Of a stretch of 64,000 bases of DNA, positions 30,301 to 51,363 are shown in pieces (positions within the stretch are counted from its first letter, which is position 1; each line of letters starts with the position of its first letter). A program made the translations under genes and the position numbers. A model generated the notes under the pieces. That model made no database searches. It worked only from the letters and a program-made list of their open reading frames with translations, and had not been told where the DNA came from. Source of the stretch: an archaeon (GTDB taxonomy: Archaea > Undinarchaeota > Undinarchaeia > Undinarchaeales > JBDRKL01); assembly GCA_043814055.1 (NCBI GenBank), contig JBDRKL010000010.1, forward strand, positions 32,001-96,000. The letters run 5' to 3'.

Positions 30301-33300
30301 GGGCTGTATGAGGGCAACATGACCGCGCCGCAAAGCGGAAATTACATTGCCAACATAACTGCATTTGACTCTGTCGGGCTGAGCAGCCAGGCCAATATTT
30401 CCATAGAGATAAACTCAGTTAAGCCGGACCTGAGCATAAGCCCGGGCGATATCGTGTACGCGCCGGCTGAGCCAAAGGACGGCAGTATTGTTGTTGTAAA
30501 TGCCACGATTTACAACTTCGGCGAGACTGCAGCAAATAACTTTGGGCTGGAGCTGCTCATTGACGGGGTTTCAAGCGAGGCAAAAATTATTTCAGTCCCA
30601 GCAATGTCTGCCACGATGGTGCAATTTGAGTGGGCTGCTGCCTACGGTCAGCACGAAGTTAAAGTGCGCGCTGACTACACCAATGCCCTAGATGAGTGGG
30701 ATGAGTCAAATAATGAGGCTGGGTTCACCTTAACTGTGATAGACGCTGTGCCTCCAACAATACACAGCATATCGGTTGAGCCTATGATAGTGCATGAGGG
30801 GGACATTGTCTATGTCAGTGCCAATGTTACTGACAACGTTGAAGTGAAGCAGGTCAAGGCAGAAGTTGGCACTGCCAGCAAGGTACTTATGTATAACAAC
30901 GAGTCTGGGCTATATGAGGGCACGATAACAGCGCCTTTTAAGGGATTCTACCATGTCGTGGTTACTGCAACTGACAGGGATGGCCTGGTAAGCTCCAGGC
31001 AGGCAGGGCTCAATGTGAATAGCAATAAGATAGACCTTGTAGTGGGCACTGCTGACATCGCCTTCCTCCCAGCAAGCCCGAGAGATGGTGAGTTTGTTAA
31101 TATTAAGGCGACCATCCACAATACTGGTGCTGCAGACGCAGACAACTTTATAGCAGAGTTCCTGGTTGATGGCAATTCGCATGAAACTGTCAATGTTTCT
31201 GTTCCAGCAAAATCCCAGGCACTGGCAGAATTCACCTGGGTTGCCAGCTATGGCACGCACACGCTTTCAATCAATGCAGATTCAGAAAATATCATTGCAG
31301 AGGTTAATGAAACCAATAACCTGGCTGGGAAGGTTCTGCTGGTTCCGGATACTATTCCGCCGACAATAGAGAGCATAACCAATAGCCCCGAAATAGTCCA
31401 CGAGAGCAACCTTGTCACAATAGAAGCTGTTGTTACAGATAACCGCGGCATAGATGTGGTAATTGCAGAATTAAATGGTGCAAACATAAGTCTTTCGCCT
31501 GATTCAGGCGCATATACAGGTGTGCTAACCGCTCCTGCTGAAGGGAAATATAACGTCAAGGTAACTGCTTTTGATGACAGCAGCTTGTCCAGCACGCGGC
31601 AGGAGCCGCTTGCTGTGCATAGCATTAAGCCGGATATCCAGATAAGAGAGGAAAATGTCACCTTTGTCCCAGAGAATCCTGTTGATGAGTCTGTGCTGAG
31701 GATAAGCGTTGTGCTGTATAACACAGGTGCAAGCAGCACGGGCAGTTTTGAGGCAGGGCTTATTATAGATAACAAGGCAGTGCAAAGCAATACTATTTCA
31801 GTGGAAGCAGGTTCTAATGTGAGCACAGAATTTTCTTGGAATGCCACTTATGGCAACCACACCCTGAAGATAAAGGCAGACACCAAGAATGATGTAGCTG
31901 AGATAAATGAGTCAAATAACGAGTACACAAAAGAACTATTTATCCCTGACATTACCCCGCCGGACTCTCCAGTGGTTAGCGCAGACCCCAGCAGCTGGGC
32001 CGCAGACAGCACGCACAAAATATCCTGGGGCAAGATACAAGACCGCAACGGCATAGACCGCTATGAGTACCAGATTGATTATGGTGAGTGGCATAGTGTC
32101 GGGGCTTCTGATAGTTTCAAGACACCAGAGCAGGCAGAGGGAATCCATACTATTTATGTCAGGGCAGTTGATGGGGCCGGCTTGGCCGGCAAGCCCGGGA
32201 ATACCAGCATTTACATAGACCAGAGCGCGCCAAACACACCTGTTACAAAGGAATGGCACAGCGGGAAAAGCTGGAGCGCACACGATACGCCCTATTACGC
32301 TTGGTCTGACCCAGGGGATTTAGGAAGCGGAGTAGCCAGCTATTTGGTAAGTGTTGACAACCAAACGCCAGTCAGCGTAGGGAATACGTCCTACCACCCA
32401 ACATTAGGAACCGGTATGCATACTTTCAAAGTCAAGGCAGTTGATGCGCTTGGGCATGAAAGCGCTTGGTCTGATATAATAACAGTTTATATAGACACAA
32501 CATCACCGAGGGTACTAGATGTGGGCTCTCCAACCCACCCGGATCAAGAAACAGTCTACATGGATAATATGCCTTACTTCAATTGGACTGAACCAAGTGA
32601 CAACTCAGGAATTTATGGCTATTACTATCTTATAGACAATCTTGAGGGCACAATCCCAACTGAACTGTACTCCTGGGCTCCTGAACCTTTTGTAAACTTT
32701 ACAGGATTTGGCAATCAGGTATATTCAGGCGCAACAAAGAAAGAGATGGGCTTGCCTGATGGCACATGGTACTTCCATGTAAGGGCAATAGACGTGGTTG
32801 GAAATCTTGGGGCAGCCACTCACTACAAGGTAAACATCCTGACGAACGACCCGCCTGAGATTACTTTGTTGCAGCCAAATGGCGGTGAAATGTGGAGTGG
32901 GGTGAAAGAGATAGCTTGGAACGCTTCTGACCCTGATGGTAATTTGCTTGAGTTTAGCGTTTCATACAGCACGGATGGGCTCGTTTATACCGAGATTGGT
33001 AACACAACTGAATTAAGTTATGGGTGGGACACTTCCACAGTAGAGGATATAGACACCTACACGATAAAAGTCGTTGCGAGCGATGGCAATGCAACTAGCG
33101 AAGACACTTCCGATATAAACTTCCTGATAGACAACACCAAGCCGGAAACAACAGACAATCACGACGAAGCGTGGCACACCCAGGAGGTAACAATAGAACT
33201 GGATGCAAACGATTCTTTCTCTGGTATTGCCGATACCTATTACATCATATACCAGGATGAAACGCCGCAGGAAACAAAGACAGTTAGCAGTGATGGCCAG

Positions 33301-39157: not shown

Positions 39158-40255
39158 TTACCCTTCAACTTTAAACCGCAAAATCGCTGCGTACCCACCG
39201 AACTGTGAAATTTGCTGTCCTTCGCGGGTCTCGTTTGAAATGATTTGAACTTCTGTTGCAGTCTGCTGTGCAGTCTCAGTCAATTCTTCAATCTTTTCCT
39301 CGTCCAAATCCTCTGAAAGCATTAAAACTTCAATCGCGCCCATCGCAAGCGCCTTGCGCACATCCTCTTCGCCGTATGTAGCGAGCCCGGTGTCCTTGCC
39401 CAAATGCCCAAGGAACTTGTCCACAAGATGCTTCTCCTTCATCACCGCGGCTTCCTTGAGAATGTCATCTGACTTCTCTATGAGCTCGCGGAGCCCTTGC
39501 TCGCCTGTGTAGCCGATATCCAGAATGCCGAGCACTTTCTCACGCAAGTCAGTGTGTATGTGCTCTTTGTCCATCAATTCAGTTTTTGTAGGCCCTGGCC
39601 CGCCAACAATAATTCCTTTTAAGTTCTCCTCTTTCTTGAATATGGTGTTCGCTGCTTCGCTCACTTCCTTGTAAAAGTCATTCGCCATTCCCTCAATCAT
39701 CCTAGCGAACCTCTGCGCTGACTGCCCGCCTGCCCTGAACTTGCCAGGGATTAGCGAGTCAAAGCTCTCTACAATGTCAAGCCGTGTGCCTTTCAGGAAC
39801 GCGATGTCCGCATGCTGTCTTTCAATAACTATGAGCCCGTAGGTCTCGCGGCTCTCAAGCATGTCCTCCAGTGGCTCAAGCACGAACTTCTGCGAGCAGC
39901 GGTAAAGGTTCATATTGAGCGGCTTTGGCGGGGTAATGCTCTCCATCAGGAAGTCATCGCGGCCCTCGTTCTCCGAGACATTGCCGCAGAACACCGCGAG
40001 CCCGTTCTTCGGGGTCTGCTTAAACTGCTTGAAATGCTGTAGAATTTTAGTCAGCGCTGTGCCAACGTTCTTGCGCGTTGTCGCGCTCTTGATGTTTGAC
40101 GCAGTGCCCTGCTCCTCAAACAAGCGCCCGGCTGCCTTGTCCAGGTTGTAGCCGTCTGCGATGTAAACTGTGATTAGCTCAGTGTGCCTGCCACGCTTTG
40201 ACCTGAGCTCGCGGAGCTTTTTCTTCAGTTCGTGGAGTTGTTGTTCGTCGGTCAT
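39158..40255 (-). CDS. prf1: Archaeal peptide chain release factor aRF1
   Basis: GRHTELITVY, TASNIKS, YRC, GGQSAQRF, FGGYAAILRF. Confidence 0.96.
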   Translation of the reverse strand: MTDEQQLHELKKKLRELRSKRGRHTELITVYIADGYNLDKAAGRLFEEQGTASNIKSATTRKNVGTALTKILQHFKQFKQTPKNGLAVFCGNVSENEGRDDFLMESITPPKPLNMNLYRCSQKFVLEPLEDMLESRETYGLIVIERQHADIAFLKGTRLDIVESFDSLIPGKFRAGGQSAQRFARMIEGMANDFYKEVSEAANTIFKKEENLKGIIVGGPGPTKTELMDKEHIHTDLREKVLGILDIGYTGEQGLRELIEKSDDILKEAAVMKEKHLVDKFLGHLGKDTGLATYGEEDVRKALAMGAIEVLMLSEDLDEEKIEELTETAQQTATEVQIISNETREGQQISQFGGYAAILRFKVEG

Positions 40256-40584
40256 CCCAGCTTGTCGCCCTCCTTAACTTCCTGCTCCGGCTGCATTAGC
40301 ACAACGCCCTGGTCTGAATACGTGCCTAGCACGAGAACTTCAGACATGAAATTGCCAATTTGCTTTGGGGGAAAATTCACAACAGCCATAACTTGTTTTC
40401 CCACCAAATCTTCTGGCTTGTAAAGCTCTGTGAGTTGTGCGCTTGTTTTTTTTATTCCCATATGACCAAAGTCAATCTCCATTTTGTATGCGGGTACTTT
40501 TGCACCTTCAAACGACTCTGCTTTCAGCACTTTGCCTACCCTAATATCAACCTTCATGAAATCCGCGAATGTTATCTCAGGCAT
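40252..40584 (-). CDS. csaA: tRNA-binding protein / chaperone CsaA
   Basis: FxKVDIRVG, SAQLT, VVNFPPKQIGNFMSEVLVLG. Confidence 0.9.
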   Translation of the reverse strand: MPEITFADFMKVDIRVGKVLKAESFEGAKVPAYKMEIDFGHMGIKKTSAQLTELYKPEDLVGKQVMAVVNFPPKQIGNFMSEVLVLGTYSDQGVVLMQPEQEVKEGDKLG

Positions 40585-42973
40585 CCAAACTCACCTTCAG
40601 CCCTTCCCCTTCCTTAATCACAACTTCTTCAGCCCGCGCAGTGCCTTTTATGTCAAGTTCCAGCAACCCAAGCAACTTCTTGTTGCCTTCAATCGTGACT
40701 GTCTTAACCTCAGCTCCGAGCGATATGCTCTTCTCCTGCTTTGCCTGCCGCACTCCAGCCACAACCTGCAGGAGAAGCTCGCCAGCTTCCTTTGCCTCTG
40801 CATCAATCCATTCTTCCTTAACTTCAGGCCACTTTGAAGTGTGAATGCTCTTCTCTTTCTCTCTCTTTGCGTAGCTCCAGCTGAAAATTTCCTCAGTTAT
40901 GAACGGCATAATCGGCGCCATCATCTTCAAACATGAAAGCAGAACGTGATAAAGCGTGTACTGCGCGCCTTCCTTGCCCTCAGGGTACTTGTCCGGGTTG
41001 TACAGCCTGTCCTTAACAATTTCCAGATAATTGTCGCAAAGAATGTGCCAGAAGAAATTCTCCACATTCATCTTGGTTTTTGAATACTCATATTTCTCAA
41101 AGAAATCAGTTGATTCCTGCACTATATCATTCAATTTTGCAAGAATCCACTTGTCCACAACCCTGAGCTTCTCTTCCCCAGTCGGCTTGTAGCCCTCTAG
41201 GTGCATCTGTACGAACTTTGACGCATTGAATAGCTTGGTCGCGAACTTCATTCCGGTCTGCAGGTCTTTTTCCTGGAACGGCATATCCTCGCCGAGCGTT
41301 GAGCCAGCTGCCCAGAAGCGCAGCGCGTCCGCGGAGTATTTCTCAATTGTTGCCTGCGGCTCAACCACGTTGCCCTTTGACTTTGACATCTTCTTGCCTT
41401 TTGGGTCAAGCGCCCAGCCGCTAATCATTATGTCCTTCCACGGCGGCTTGTTGTAGTACAGTTTTGATTTTACCACAGTATTGAAGAGCCAGAACGTAAT
41501 TATGTCGTGCGCCTGTGGTCTGAGGCTCATCGGGAAGAGCTTGTCAAACAGTTCAGGGTATAGCCCGGCTGCAATCTGCGGTGTATGAGAGCTGGTCATC
41601 CAGGTGTCAAACACGTCCTTCTCAGGCTCAAAGTCGCTTGAGCCGCACTTGCACTTCTGCTTTGGCTTGTCCTTGAGCGGGTCAACAGGCAATTGCGACT
41701 CGTCAGCAATAATTGATTCCCCGCACTTTTTGCAATACCACACTGGAAGCGGAACTCCGAAGTGCCTCTGCCGCGAGATGCACCAGTCCCACTTAAGCCC
41801 GTCAATCCAGTTGTCATACCTGTGCTTCATGTACGCTGGGAACCAGTTCATCTCTCCCCCTGCGCCGAGGAAGTCAGCTTTCAGGTCCATGTAGCGGATG
41901 AACCACTGCTCAGTCATCAGAATTTCAAGGTCTGTTCCGCACTTGTCGTGCGTATTCACAACGTGCTTCATCGGCTCTGCTTTCTCAAGCCGTCCATCCT
42001 TTTCCAGGTCCTGGGTGATTGCGTCGCGCGCCTCTTTCATCTTCAAGCCTTTGTACTGACCAGCTTTCTCATTGAGCGTGCCGTCCTTGTTAAGTATTTC
42101 AATCGGGGTTATGCCAAAGTCCTCAACCCACTGAACATCGTCCATATCTCCAAATGTGCAGTGATACACAGCTCCAGTTCCGAACTCAGGATCAGCGTCT
42201 TTGTTAGCATAAATCTCAACTTCCCTGTCAAAACCAAGTGGTAGAATCGCTTTTTTACCCACAAATTCCTTGTAGCGCTTGTCATTTGGGTGCACGAAAA
42301 CTGCAACGCAGGCTGGCAAAAGCTCAGGCCTTGTTGTTGCGATTGTGATTGGCTTTCCCTCAGTTGTGTCCATTTTGAAGTAAACGAATTTTGATTCGCG
42401 CTCCTCGTCCTTCATCTCCACCTGCGCAATCGCGGTCTGGCACTCCGGGCACCACATGAATGGGCTCCGCTTGCGATAAACGCGGTTTATCTTGTGCAAA
42501 TCCAGGAAAGATTTCTGCGCTATTTTCTGGCAGTGCTCATTGATTGTTGTGTAAGTAACATTAAAATCAGCAGAAGTTCCGATGCGCTTCCAGTCCTCAA
42601 TATACTGCGGTCTAAGCTCTTTCTCAAGTGTTTCAAGGCAGAGCTTGACGAAATCAGCGCGCTCCATCCGGGTTGATTTGACTTTCTTCATCTTCTCAAT
42701 CAAGCGCTCAGTAGGGAGTCCGTTGTCGTCAGTTCCGAAAGGGTAGAAGAGGTTGTAGCCGCGCATTCGCTTGTACCGCGCGACAAAGTCCATTTGAGAG
42801 TATGAAAAAGCGTGTCCTATGTGCATTTTGCCTGAGACAGTTGGTGGCGGAGTGTCTATTGAATAAATAGGCGCATTGCTCTTTGGGTCAAAGGCGTAAG
42901 TTTTGTCCTTGTCCCAAGTGTCGCGCCACTTCTTCTCGGCTTCCTTTGCGTTATAGTGCTTGGATGGGTCCAT
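40577..42973 (-). CDS. valS: Valine--tRNA ligase (archaeal type)
   Basis: SIDTPPPTVSG, HIGH, DDNGLPTE, ATTRPE, DWCISRQR, KMSKS. Confidence 0.96.
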   Translation of the reverse strand: MDPSKHYNAKEAEKKWRDTWDKDKTYAFDPKSNAPIYSIDTPPPTVSGKMHIGHAFSYSQMDFVARYKRMRGYNLFYPFGTDDNGLPTERLIEKMKKVKSTRMERADFVKLCLETLEKELRPQYIEDWKRIGTSADFNVTYTTINEHCQKIAQKSFLDLHKINRVYRKRSPFMWCPECQTAIAQVEMKDEERESKFVYFKMDTTEGKPITIATTRPELLPACVAVFVHPNDKRYKEFVGKKAILPLGFDREVEIYANKDADPEFGTGAVYHCTFGDMDDVQWVEDFGITPIEILNKDGTLNEKAGQYKGLKMKEARDAITQDLEKDGRLEKAEPMKHVVNTHDKCGTDLEILMTEQWFIRYMDLKADFLGAGGEMNWFPAYMKHRYDNWIDGLKWDWCISRQRHFGVPLPVWYCKKCGESIIADESQLPVDPLKDKPKQKCKCGSSDFEPEKDVFDTWMTSSHTPQIAAGLYPELFDKLFPMSLRPQAHDIITFWLFNTVVKSKLYYNKPPWKDIMISGWALDPKGKKMSKSKGNVVEPQATIEKYSADALRFWAAGSTLGEDMPFQEKDLQTGMKFATKLFNASKFVQMHLEGYKPTGEEKLRVVDKWILAKLNDIVQESTDFFEKYEYSKTKMNVENFFWHILCDNYLEIVKDRLYNPDKYPEGKEGAQYTLYHVLLSCLKMMAPIMPFITEEIFSWSYAKREKEKSIHTSKWPEVKEEWIDAEAKEAGELLLQVVAGVRQAKQEKSISLGAEVKTVTIEGNKKLLGLLELDIKGTARAEEVVIKEGEGLKVSLDA

Positions 42974-43015
42974 TTTAAGATTTTAAAAGAATATGAGCCG
43001 GGCTAAACCCGATGT

Positions 43016-43045
43016 TCAAACTACAACAACTGAAGAGTTGCTCAT
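43016..43045 (-). promoter_or_regulatory. Leader-peptide uORF MSNSSVVVV upstream of valS
   Basis: Minus strand ATG AGC AAC TCT TCA GTT GTT GTA GTT TGA. It is followed by the hairpin CGGGTTTAGCCCG and a T-rich tract, and its stop lies 42 nt before the valS ATG. Confidence 0.75.
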
Positions 43046-43067
43046 AAGGAGAGTATTGAGTGCTGGG

Positions 43068-43075
43068 TATAAAAA
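43068..43075 (-). promoter_or_regulatory. TATA box for the valS-csaA-prf1 transcript
   Basis: TTTTTATA on the minus strand ends ~22 nt upstream of the uORF ATG. Confidence 0.6.
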
Positions 43076-43081
43076 GGTTAC

Positions 43082-43879
43082 TTAAAAACTCCCCAGCGTG
43101 CTCTGCGCAATCTCGTCCAAGCTTACGCGTTGCCCGTCCTTTGCCGCGATTGTCCTGACTCCAGTTTCATCCTGAATCTTGCTGGCTTCGTGCTCCGGTC
43201 CTGCCTCAAGACTCTTCATTCCGAAATGAGTTAGAACGCAGAGCTTCGGCCTGACTTCATTGAGTATGTTCACAACGTCCTCGCTGCACAAATGCCATTT
43301 TATCCTCTCATTACCTGATCTGAGCAGGCCGATTATCAAAATATCAATATCTTTATACTCTTCTGCAAGCCCTTCAAAATACTCTGTGTCGCTTGTGTAA
43401 GCAATCTTTTTCCCATCATATTCAAGCACAAAGCCGAACGTGCTCGGGTCCTTGTGCTGTGCTTTTGTTGCCCTGAACTTGACACTGCCGAGCTCATACT
43501 CATCACCTGGCTTAACCAGGTGCTTTTCTGCGAGATTCTCAGCGTGGAAACTGGATATGCAGGGCTCAATGTCCTCAACCCCGCTCAGGACGGACTCTGA
43601 AGCAAGAAGAACGCCGCGCTTTTTCGTGGCGCTGCTGGTCATTGCCTCAATCATCACGTTCATATCAGTGCAGTGGTCTGGGTGGCCGTGGGTTGTGATT
43701 AAATGCGTAACTTTGCTCGCCCACTCCTGACTCTGCCTGCACCGAACTAATGCGCCCGGCCCAGGGTCTGCGTGGATTACAGTATCACCCAAGTTGAAGC
43801 GGATGCCTCCTGTTGCGCGCTTTTGCGTAAGCATCACAAACCTGCCGCCGCCGGTGCCGAGGAATACTATGGTGTCCAT
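43082..43879 (-). CDS. Metallo-beta-lactamase fold hydrolase
   Basis: FLGTGGGR, DPGPG, THGHPDH, SDT, THFG. Confidence 0.88.
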   Translation of the reverse strand: MDTIVFLGTGGGRFVMLTQKRATGGIRFNLGDTVIHADPGPGALVRCRQSQEWASKVTHLITTHGHPDHCTDMNVMIEAMTSSATKKRGVLLASESVLSGVEDIEPCISSFHAENLAEKHLVKPGDEYELGSVKFRATKAQHKDPSTFGFVLEYDGKKIAYTSDTEYFEGLAEEYKDIDILIIGLLRSGNERIKWHLCSEDVVNILNEVRPKLCVLTHFGMKSLEAGPEHEASKIQDETGVRTIAAKDGQRVSLDEIAQSTLGSF

Positions 43880-50646: not shown

Positions 50647-51183
50647 ATGTTGCTTGAAAACATTCAAAAGCGCAGAAAAGCCATAGGGCTCACCCAGAGC
50701 GAACTCTCACGGCTGAGTGGAGTTTCCCAGAGCACCATAGCGAAAATAGAGAGCAACAAAATCAGCCCGAGTTATCAAATTGCAAAGGCCATCTTTGATG
50801 CGCTGGACGCGCAGGAGCACGAGACATCTGCAAAGGCCGCGGACATAATGACGCGGAAGGTTATCACAATAGACTCAAATGACACTGTTCAAACCGCTGG
50901 AAAAATAATGAGGGAAAAAGGTATATCTCAGCTTCCTGTGTTTGAGAAAGACCATTTAGTTGGGATTATTTCCGAGCGGATTATAGTTGAAAACTTTGAC
51001 AAGCCCAGCTTGAAGCAGAAGCGAATCAGCGAAATAATGAGCGAGGCGCCGCCCACGATTGCGGAGAACGCCCCAATCAAGCTGGTCTCAGAGCTGTTAA
51101 AATATAGTTCACTCATTGCGGTTTACCACAAATCTGAGTTCAAAGGCATAATAACCAAGTCGGATTTGCTTGGAGTGATATAA
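50647..51183 (+). CDS. XRE-HTH + CBS-pair transcriptional regulator
   Basis: GLTQSELSRLSGVSQSTIAKIE; ISQLPV, GIIT CBS motifs. Confidence 0.9.
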   Translation: MLLENIQKRRKAIGLTQSELSRLSGVSQSTIAKIESNKISPSYQIAKAIFDALDAQEHETSAKAADIMTRKVITIDSNDTVQTAGKIMREKGISQLPVFEKDHLVGIISERIIVENFDKPSLKQKRISEIMSEAPPTIAENAPIKLVSELLKYSSLIAVYHKSEFKGIITKSDLLGVI

Positions 51184-51221
51184 GAAATCTTTTTATAAGT
51201 GAGAGATGATTAAGAGACGAT

Positions 51222-51363
51222 AAAGTTTGACCAAAGGCAATCAAATTGCTCAGTAGTGCTGCAGCATAACCAATTTGATGCAGCACCTCAAGACACATGC
51301 GAAGCATGTGTTTGCCTCACGCGCTTTGCGCGTGAAGTTTGATCAAACTTTTCATAAAAGTTT
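51222..51363. ncRNA. Structured 5' leader/element upstream of tRNA-Ile
   Basis: 14-bp IR AAAGTTTGACCAAA/TTTGATCAAACTTT (1 mismatch); pseudoknot ATCAAATTG/CAATTTGAT + GTGCTGC/GCAGCAC; hairpins ACACATGC-GAA-GCATGTGT and TCACGCGC-TTT-GCGCGTGA; TATA TTTTATAA at ~51191. Confidence 0.6.

Follow-up and report, generated by a model that had tools for sequence, protein, structure and literature searches.

The valyl-tRNA synthetase (ValRS) gene, valS, of an archaeon of the order Undinarchaeales is preceded by a nine-codon reading frame, MSNSSVVVV, which together with the hairpin behind it is probably a leader-peptide attenuator, one that senses charged tRNA-Val through the position of the ribosome and responds by premature termination of transcription. 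The locus lies in a window of 64,000 nucleotides (nt), i.e., the whole stretch of DNA that was analysed, which corresponds to positions 32001–96000 of contig C10 (JBDRKL010000010.1) of the source genome G000 (GCA_043814055.1), an archaeal genome of 0.98 Mb that is 82% complete. What appears to be an isoleucine-codon version of the device precedes ileS in the same genome and in most of the order, and ribosome-sensed attenuation is plausible as the simplest account that fits both leaders. A bolder and more tentative proposal is that these leaders represent the first ribosome-mediated transcription attenuation in Archaea, a “branched-chain ribulon” in which leaderless Val and Ile leader reading frames would set the expression of valS and ileS; the start codon at the 5′ end would be part of the terminator stem, and a lone pioneer ribosome would serve as the antiterminator, with no alternative hairpin needed.

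The leaders were followed through a comparison set of 17 genomes in the phylum, with 13 in the order, which was split into the families f1–f5. G000 belongs to f1, and the genus of G010, G006 and G002, in the same order, is referred to as g3. The nearest named valS loci come from metagenome-assembled genomes labelled Woesearchaeota, Nanoarchaeia, Undinarchaeales and similar, and the organism, judged by its sequence, is a DPANN-type archaeon.

The valS leader and its promoter

The original prediction had described a TATA box, the MSNSSVVVV upstream open reading frame (uORF), a hairpin, a pair of complementary heptamers, a T-rich tract and the valS start codon, and each of these was found base for base where it had been placed, on the minus strand of the window. 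The TATA box of the leader promoter, TTTTTATA, occupies 43068–43075, with TTTATA starting 28 nt and TTTTTA starting 30 nt ahead of the uORF ATG. The uORF itself (43016–43045) reads ATG AGC AAC TCT TCA GTT GTT GTA GTT TGA, i.e., nine codons and TGA, and four of the nine, the unbroken run GTT GTT GTA GTT of codons 6–9 (43019–43030), specify valine. Its start codon is included in TATGAGC (43040–43046), the 5′ arm of an outer helix, P1, which pairs with the complementary 3′ arm GCTCATA (42992–42998) in both the minimum-energy and the centroid folds. Stacked directly on P1 is the inner hairpin P2, CGGGT-TTA-GCCCG (42999–43011), and right behind the 3′ arm of P1 follows a U-rich tract, TTCTTTT (42985–42991), the candidate site of premature termination. 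The uORF ends 42 nt upstream of the valS ATG at 42973, on the same strand.

The gene that would be regulated (40577–42973, minus strand) encodes a valine–tRNA ligase of 798 aa, recognised by NCBIfam NF009687 (1048.8 bits against a cut-off of 738) and by TIGR00422. The proposed match between the tandem Val codons and the enzyme encoded downstream is borne out by these profile scores and by the rarity of such a run, since no ATG-initiated short open reading frame (sORF) with VVVV arose when the 108-nt spacer before valS was shuffled 200,000 times with its dinucleotides preserved, and VVV arose in 28 of the shuffles. ORF calling in G000 gave 1033 ORFs of at least 70 aa, which cover 91% of the genome. 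The 150 nt upstream of each were scanned strictly for ATG-sORFs of 4–25 codons with four identical residues in a row, and four were returned, the two intergenic ones being the Val frame before valS and the Ile frame before ileS. The remaining two, with RRRR and SSSSS runs, were rejected because they lie inside coding sequence, one of them before a gene of the inositol-monophosphatase family and the other within a gene for a pyridoxal-phosphate enzyme. A broader scan of the genome found 1717 ATG-sORFs of 3–25 codons within 250 nt upstream of ORFs, 46 of them with a TATA at leaderless distance; at least four of five consecutive residues were alike in two of these 46, namely the Val frame at valS and MNTDSEIIIIR at ileS.

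TATA-like hexamers in G000 peak at −30 to −28 from start codons (237, against about 11–96 in the other 3-nt bins), which argues that many of its genes are leaderless, and Shine-Dalgarno (SD) motifs peak at −14 to −10. The TATA hexamer at −28/−30 of the valS-uORF ATG falls on the genome-wide leaderless peak, in agreement with the earlier suggestion of a nearly leaderless placement. This distance suggests that the transcript begins at the uORF start codon, so that the leader ORF would probably sit at the very 5′ end of the mRNA. The valS ATG is preceded by GC-rich sequence at −30 to −25 and has neither a TATA near −30 nor an SD. Lacking a promoter or SD at the usual distances, valS is therefore expected to be transcribed through the leader.

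Conservation of the valS leader

Upstream regions were compared at 30 valS loci obtained from a search of 41 genomes. A Val-rich uORF precedes valS in four of the 13 genomes of the order, G000 and the three genomes of g3, a single genus (ValRS ~61% identical). The peptides of G010, G006 and G002 are MITNTVVNV, MKTNVMVVV and MTSNIVVVI, each encoded by nine codons and TGA as in G000, and the g3 leaders are laid out in the order TATA, arm AGCTAG, nine-codon ORF, small GC hairpin, arm CTAGCT and T-run. Conserved Val-codon uORFs with synonymous variation had been named in the original prediction as a check on the idea, and this is the pattern that was observed: the codons GTT, GTA and GTC are reordered, with GTA GTA..GTA, GTA..GTT GTC GTA and GTT GTC GTT in g3 against GTT GTT GTA GTT in G000. 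The outer helix of g3, AGCTAG/CTAGCT, is wholly different in sequence from TATGAGC/GCTCATA of G000 and is found at an equal position. P2 has counterparts in CCCT-GCA-AGGG (G010), CCCC-ATGA-GGGG (G006) and CCCCT-GTGT-AGGGG (G002), among which there is one compensatory pair, U-A vs C-G.

The nine other genomes of the order have no Val uORF before valS, and mostly show a TATA ~30 nt before the valS ATG or an upstream tRNA gene. In a ValRS tree (single gene, midpoint rooting) the order branches into f2, then G000, then an unresolved f3/f4/f5, which implies either a loss of the valS leader in f4 and f5 or two separate gains. In named genomes and metagenomes, identity to the valS locus of G000 reaches 64% at most, and fine-scale variation within f1 is therefore not visible.

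Some further features of these loci were recorded. Between the 3′ arm of P1 and valS, the g3 leaders (L003–L005) carry a second hairpin with a U-rich loop, CTTCACAG-T7C-CTGTGAAG, which directly precedes an SD-like GGGAGG, and the words CACAG/CTGTG are shared between these leaders and those of ileS in the genomes concerned. In the ValRS tree, three genomes of the “same phylum” lie farther from the order than two of the “same domain” (L013, L014 vs L018, L020, L027), which hints at a transfer of valS or a quirk of classification.

The isoleucine leader of ileS

Other aminoacyl-tRNA synthetase (aaRS) genes had been suggested as a place to look for uORFs of cognate codons, and an Ile-codon uORF was indeed found at ileS in G000 and nine more of the 13 genomes, covering four of the five families (L204–L212, L216). 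In G000 (locus L205, outside the window), the leaderless-type uORF MNTDSEIIIIR (C12:21951–21986, minus strand) lies 122–87 nt upstream of a 976-aa ORF identified as ileS (TIGR00392, 936 bits against a cut-off of 621), with 86 nt between uORF and gene. The peptides read MNTDT[SQ]IIIIIR in f3, MSTIIETIIIRN, MSTISGIISIIIRE and MSAISGTISIIRE in f4, and MARTASIIIVIGIVA, MKSTASIIIVIGIVA and MVYTAGIIIAIGIAA in f2, the f2 peptides following the pattern M..TA[SG]III[VA]IGI[VA]A. A TATA hexamer lies at −29 to −32 from the ATG in all ten. Family f5 has neither the valS nor the ileS leader. Outside the order, no Ile-rich leader was found in 14 usable archaeal ileS loci (of 20 stretches), where a 23-codon sORF with three scattered Ile was rejected as a leader.

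All ten ileS leaders also contain a hairpin, H2, made of GUGCYCY, an AU-rich loop opening with a U-run, and RGGGGCAC (C12:21891–21944 in G000). This element (GTGCTCC...GGGGCAC) is nearly invariant across four families and includes a conserved U·G pair; when 151 genomes were searched with an H2 covariance model, ten gave one match each, always at ileS, and 141 gave none. The fold of the ileS leaders (z-scores of −2.3 to −4.9) combines H2 with another hairpin, H1, whose stem contains the Ile codons and the stop codon. In an alignment of five ileS leaders, five pairs are changed on both sides, four of them in H1, and 92.6% of the cells are paired over H1 and H2, against 36–45% when slid. The segment CUGUGCUCC can pair with either the uORF 5′ region or GGGGCAC; since the start-region pairing overlaps the 5′ arm of H2 in several ileS leaders, alternative folds exist.

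At 10–20 nt after H2 (L205–L212, L216), a purine-rich stretch followed by a TATA-like sequence was noted in all families, for example GAGAGGTCTATAAC and GGAAAGTCTATATAAA. In f2 the ileS ATG follows this stretch within 6–7 nt and lies only ~15 nt behind H2, and elsewhere 35–45 nt are inserted (~95 nt in G010). The stretch may be an SD remnant, a second promoter, or both. In f2 (L211/L007 of G001, L212/L006 of G009, L216/L009 of G005), three neighbouring genes share a strand, ileS, a tRNA gene and valS, and valS might there be read from the ileS leader promoter. At L216, ileS of G005 is split into two frames of 452 and 597 aa, and its H2 has a GC-rich insertion of ~45 nt with a hairpin of its own.

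The search was extended to further synthetases. No cognate sORF was found at any of eight leuS loci, nor at any of 34 loci of the Thr, Ser, Pro, further class II, Trp, Tyr and Phe-alpha synthetase genes in five genomes. For the Met, Arg, Glu, Asp/Asn, Lys, Ala and Cys synthetases, no leader emerged from the genome-wide sORF scans, which covered G000 only and involved no family-directed search.

Folding of the leaders

The combination of P1 and P2 is the minimum-energy and the centroid structure in all four valS leaders, with P1 enclosing the uORF and P2, and a run of T4–T5 begins 0–2 nt after the 3′ arm of P1 in each of them. A helix followed by such a run has the look of a terminator, a likeness that is qualified by the differences between archaeal and bacterial termination rules. 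The P1 duplex of G000 stood out against shuffled 5′ segments at p = 0.03. Over the 14 leaders, pairing between the uORF start and the region after the stop codon beat shuffles at p ≤ 0.03 in seven, namely every f2 and f4 leader plus the G000 valS leader, and was weak in the g3 valS leaders taken singly; the combined value over the leaders, 3e-10, takes no account of kinship and should not be read as a probability. The folds of the valS leaders show no obvious separate antiterminator hairpin, and in those of G000 the valS start codon is unpaired, with no helix over it. Rfam gave no match on the G000 valS leader at E ≤ 10, and only tRNAs were matched at E ≤ 1 on four ileS leader loci (G000, G006, G007, G001) and one g3 valS locus (L003), which argues that the leaders are neither T-boxes nor known riboswitches.

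Proposed mechanism

The observed elements, their conservation, the bias towards cognate codons, the promoter geometry and the foldability of the leaders can be combined into a scheme in which four things are predicted: where transcription starts, that the uORF is translated, that transcripts end at the U-tract, and in which direction the control acts. The promoter with its TATA at 43075–43068 would place the 5′ end of the valS mRNA on the uORF AUG or right beside it, probably at U−1/A+1 in G000, making the uORF leaderless, and a single ribosome would load while RNA synthesis is in progress. When Val-tRNA is plentiful, this ribosome would pass the four Val codons, halt at UGA and depart; the freed 5′ UAUGAGC (nt −1 to 6) could then pair with GCUCAUA (nt 48–54) to form P1, stacked on the CGGGU/GCCCG of P2 (nt 35–47) and placed right before UUCUUUU (nt 55–61). 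The hairpin and U-tract would end most transcripts ahead of valS. When Val-tRNA is scarce, the ribosome would wait on codons 6–9 with its footprint over the 5′ arm, start codon included, and without P1 the polymerase would read on into valS and the two genes behind it, a csaA-like gene and that of the release factor aRF1. With the A site on Val codon 6 or 7, the ribosome would cover approximately nt 1–30 and mask the 5′ arm, which would be free once the ribosome is at UGA or released; this estimate was made with the known size of the ribosome footprint. The product of valS being ValRS, which charges tRNA-Val, the loop would hold the level of charged tRNA-Val steady. As for the output step, oligo-T is known as a termination signal of archaeal RNA polymerase, and its effect can be enhanced by a hairpin (PMC13675443, which summarises Santangelo and Reeve 2006). 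Attenuation, as originally predicted, is supported by the comparison of relatives and by the finding at ileS, with uORF translation and the output step, be it termination, translation or stability, as its putative parts.

Evidence weighed against attenuation and rival explanations

Several findings count against attenuation as formulated above. Some concern the strength of the putative terminator: the z-scores of the valS leader folds are modest (−0.8 to −2.4), nine of 200 shuffles fold as well as the valS leader of G000, P1 is in G000 an AU-rich helix of 7 bp, and the U-tract is short there (TTCTTTT, longest run T4), T4 being the run in most leaders. In f1 and f3 the ileS leaders show only weak pairing between the uORF start and the post-stop segment (p 0.1–0.36), and the scheme gives H2 no role. 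Others concern the geometry, since in g3 the TATA lies 36–39 nt ahead of the valS-uORF ATG, off the leaderless distance, which would leave a leader of 8–10 nt before the uORF, and the P1 5′ arm of g3 lies just beyond a canonical ribosome footprint. A TATA-like box between H2 and ileS in seven of the ten loci means that ileS may have its own promoter, and valS of G000 is preceded by a 72-nt leader without an SD, so that the scheme gives no account of how valS is translated. The Val codons of the leader are not rare, GTT and GTA making up 41% and 14.5% of Val codons in the long ORFs of G000; the idea that rare codons are involved was rejected, as the Val and Ile codons of the leaders are the common ones. 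The valS version is also narrowly distributed, being limited to four of the 13 genomes of the order, three of them in one genus. In a wider scan, 80 named archaeal valS loci were reduced to 72 (seven without a clear start and one with a short flank were dropped) and 80 metagenome loci to 72 (eight dropped); the Val leader was absent from all 72 of the former and from 71 of the latter, the sole match, L134, being the G006 peptide. Finally, the genomes are kin, and counts across them overstate their independence.

The main rival keeps the stalling sensor and changes its output: downstream folding, reinitiation or 5′-end decay would set the translation of valS or the stability of its mRNA. The mycobacterial polycysteine leaderless sORFs work so, and in this closest experimentally studied analogue a ribosome-binding site is unmasked (bioRxiv 10.1101/834739). 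The shortness of the U-tracts would suit a translational output, as would the second hairpin that stands directly before GGGAGG in g3 and the ~15 nt that separate H2 from the ileS ATG in f2; P1, by sequestering the 5′-terminal AUG, would also limit ribosome reloading. However, valS of G000 has no SD and no predicted helix over its start codon, the SD-like sequence of g3 lies 3′ of the stem and outside it, and the succession of a helix and an immediate U-tract in four of four valS leaders has the appearance of a terminator. An output at the level of translation or stability is considered unlikely.

A still less probable explanation, and a rather improbable one, is that the conserved sequences are operators in RNA or DNA, bound by ValRS or IleRS on their own mRNA or by a transcription factor on an inverted repeat, with the reading frames being incidental. 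Autoregulation of an aaRS via its leader RNA is known in bacteria for E. coli ThrRS (PMC2965389), and H2 speaks for the idea here, as its near-invariance across four families is unusual for a mere stem, it occurs once per genome and always at ileS in ten of 151 genomes, and in f2 its AT-rich loop sits where an ileS TATA box would be. The operator hypothesis leaves unaccounted for the start, frame, stop and cognate codons that are kept while the nucleotides change, as in G011/G007/G003 and in f2 vs f1/f3 for Ile and in the four orders of Val codons. It offers no reason why amino acid and enzyme should match twice or why the ATG should always lie at leaderless distance from a TATA, and the conserved U·G pair in H2 fits an RNA on this strand, not a DNA palindrome. 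A protein could still act alongside the ribosome.

A last and highly improbable explanation treats the uORFs as unconnected with the regulation of the synthetases, either as micropeptide genes in their own right or as frames that arose by chance in AT-rich spacers. In its favour, the peptides are hydrophobic and very short, and each leader, having its own promoter-like TATA and U-tract, could be a separate unit. Against it, the Val run was never reproduced by shuffling, amino acid and enzyme match at two genes, the position is kept in four (valS) and ten (ileS) genomes, leuS and the seven other aaRS types (0/8 and 0/34 loci) lack such frames, and valS has no other promoter.

Relation to known systems

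Leader-peptide attenuation is a textbook mechanism of bacteria, where it requires hairpin terminators and a coupling of translation to transcription. The trp, his, ilv and thr operons have such attenuators, and pheST, with its Phe-rich leader, is the classical case of an aaRS. The archaeal leaders resemble these in having a short 5′-leader ORF rich in codons of the amino acid handled downstream, a helix and U-tract that overlap or depend on the ORF region, and charged tRNA that would be sensed via ribosome position. They differ in their archaeal host, in the probably leaderless or near-leaderless uORF and in their targets, valS and ileS, instead of biosynthetic operons. Moreover, the valS leader shows no obvious antiterminator hairpin, the 5′ arm and the start codon being masked, in the scheme, by the ribosome itself, and termination would use the archaeal oligo-U route. 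A precedent for ribosomes acting directly exists in the attenuation of E. coli pyrBI, where the polymerase pauses at low UTP and a closely following ribosome covers the terminator. In both cases it is the ribosome, not an alternative hairpin, that prevents the terminator stem (as proposed here); unlike in pyrBI, the proposed signal is stalling at cognate codons and the ribosome would sit over the 5′ arm, where the ORF begins.

For aaRS genes, pheST is given as the gamma-proteobacterial example in PMC1262725, which also describes the T-boxes that regulate aaRS genes by tRNA charging in Firmicutes, with ileS as a typical target in Actinobacteria. As set out there, T-boxes share with the present leaders the type of gene, ileS included, and the response to charging of the cognate tRNA, a function that is here predicted. 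Unlike a T-box, which binds uncharged tRNA directly and without translation, these leaders have several in-frame cognate codons in an ORF with a start and a stop. The mycobacterial polycysteine leaderless sORFs (“Cys ribulon”) are, according to bioRxiv 10.1101/834739, first cistrons on which stalled ribosomes block an mRNA duplex and unmask a ribosome-binding site. On that description, they have in common with the archaeal leaders an sORF that would come first (leaderless there and putatively so here), runs of one cognate codon and several loci sharing one signal. The mycobacterial system is bacterial and translational, whereas valS of G000 has no SD to unmask, its helix is followed by a U-tract, and the targets are tRNA synthetases.

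The original prediction held that such control is little documented in archaea, and this agrees with a search of open-access papers and bioRxiv, in which only bacterial cases and no archaeal leader-peptide attenuation were found. The word stem “attenuat” is absent from a 2026 cross-domain review of termination, a Methanosarcina Ribo-seq paper (PMC11456600) speaks of possible uORFs in general terms, and archaea appear in PMC2965389 only in the reference list. The novelty would be that a logic known from bacteria operates in a second domain, where the sensing ORFs would be leaderless, termination would follow the archaeal route, and valS and ileS would be the targets. If true, a trailing ribosome can control archaeal RNA polymerase by way of RNA folding at U-tracts, leaderless mRNAs can act as sensors, and archaea with reduced genomes, which probably depend on hosts, adjust their tRNA synthetases to how much charged tRNA is available. 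The 14 natural leader variants, which differ in codon order and helix arms, are a ready mutational series.

Neighbouring genes and minor observations

Two genes follow valS on the minus strand, one encoding a csaA-like tRNA-binding protein (40252–40584) and the other, prf1, the peptide chain release factor aRF1 (39158–40255). The reading frames overlap by 8 nt at the end of valS and by 4 nt at the end of csaA, and the three genes are therefore probably one operon; given these overlaps, which are its sole basis, co-regulation of csaA and prf1 with valS may occur. The segment 39158–42973 joins tRNA charging, a tRNA-binding protein and translation termination. Upstream, the 108-nt spacer is bordered by a gene for an MBL-fold hydrolase (43082–43879, minus strand), which lies outside the element; in family f5 an MBL-fold hydrolase gene is also found upstream of valS, yet without the uORF.

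A metatranscriptome run with 5% of the sampled words contained a 208-nt contig inside the valS coding region (41302–41509) and a 36-nt partial match. In the same run no match fell on the valS leader, and the matches are silent on transcript ends and strand. In the incomplete (82%) genome of G000, ARAGORN called 40 tRNAs, including the odd calls Pyl-cta and His-atg and a single tRNA with a CAT anticodon.

A number of sORFs were rejected as candidates. Among the named valS loci, L070, L073, L112 and L120 have frames of 14–28 codons with GTG or TTG starts and a single VV, which were taken as chance occurrences, as were those of the metagenome loci L155 and L183 (TTG/GTG starts, one VV each) and L201, a 17-codon ATG sORF with VVV that lies opposite the start of a divergent gene. 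Also rejected were an F-rich sORF that precedes the gene of a 480-aa class II enzyme by 257 nt and the sORF MNSTKVGVVV before proS in G000, a frame formed by the 5′ end of a tRNA gene. Both proS and leuS have tRNA genes with intron-like inserts immediately before them (G000 C10 ~104800–104990, outside the window, and G000 C6 ~51150–51300; L217, L219).

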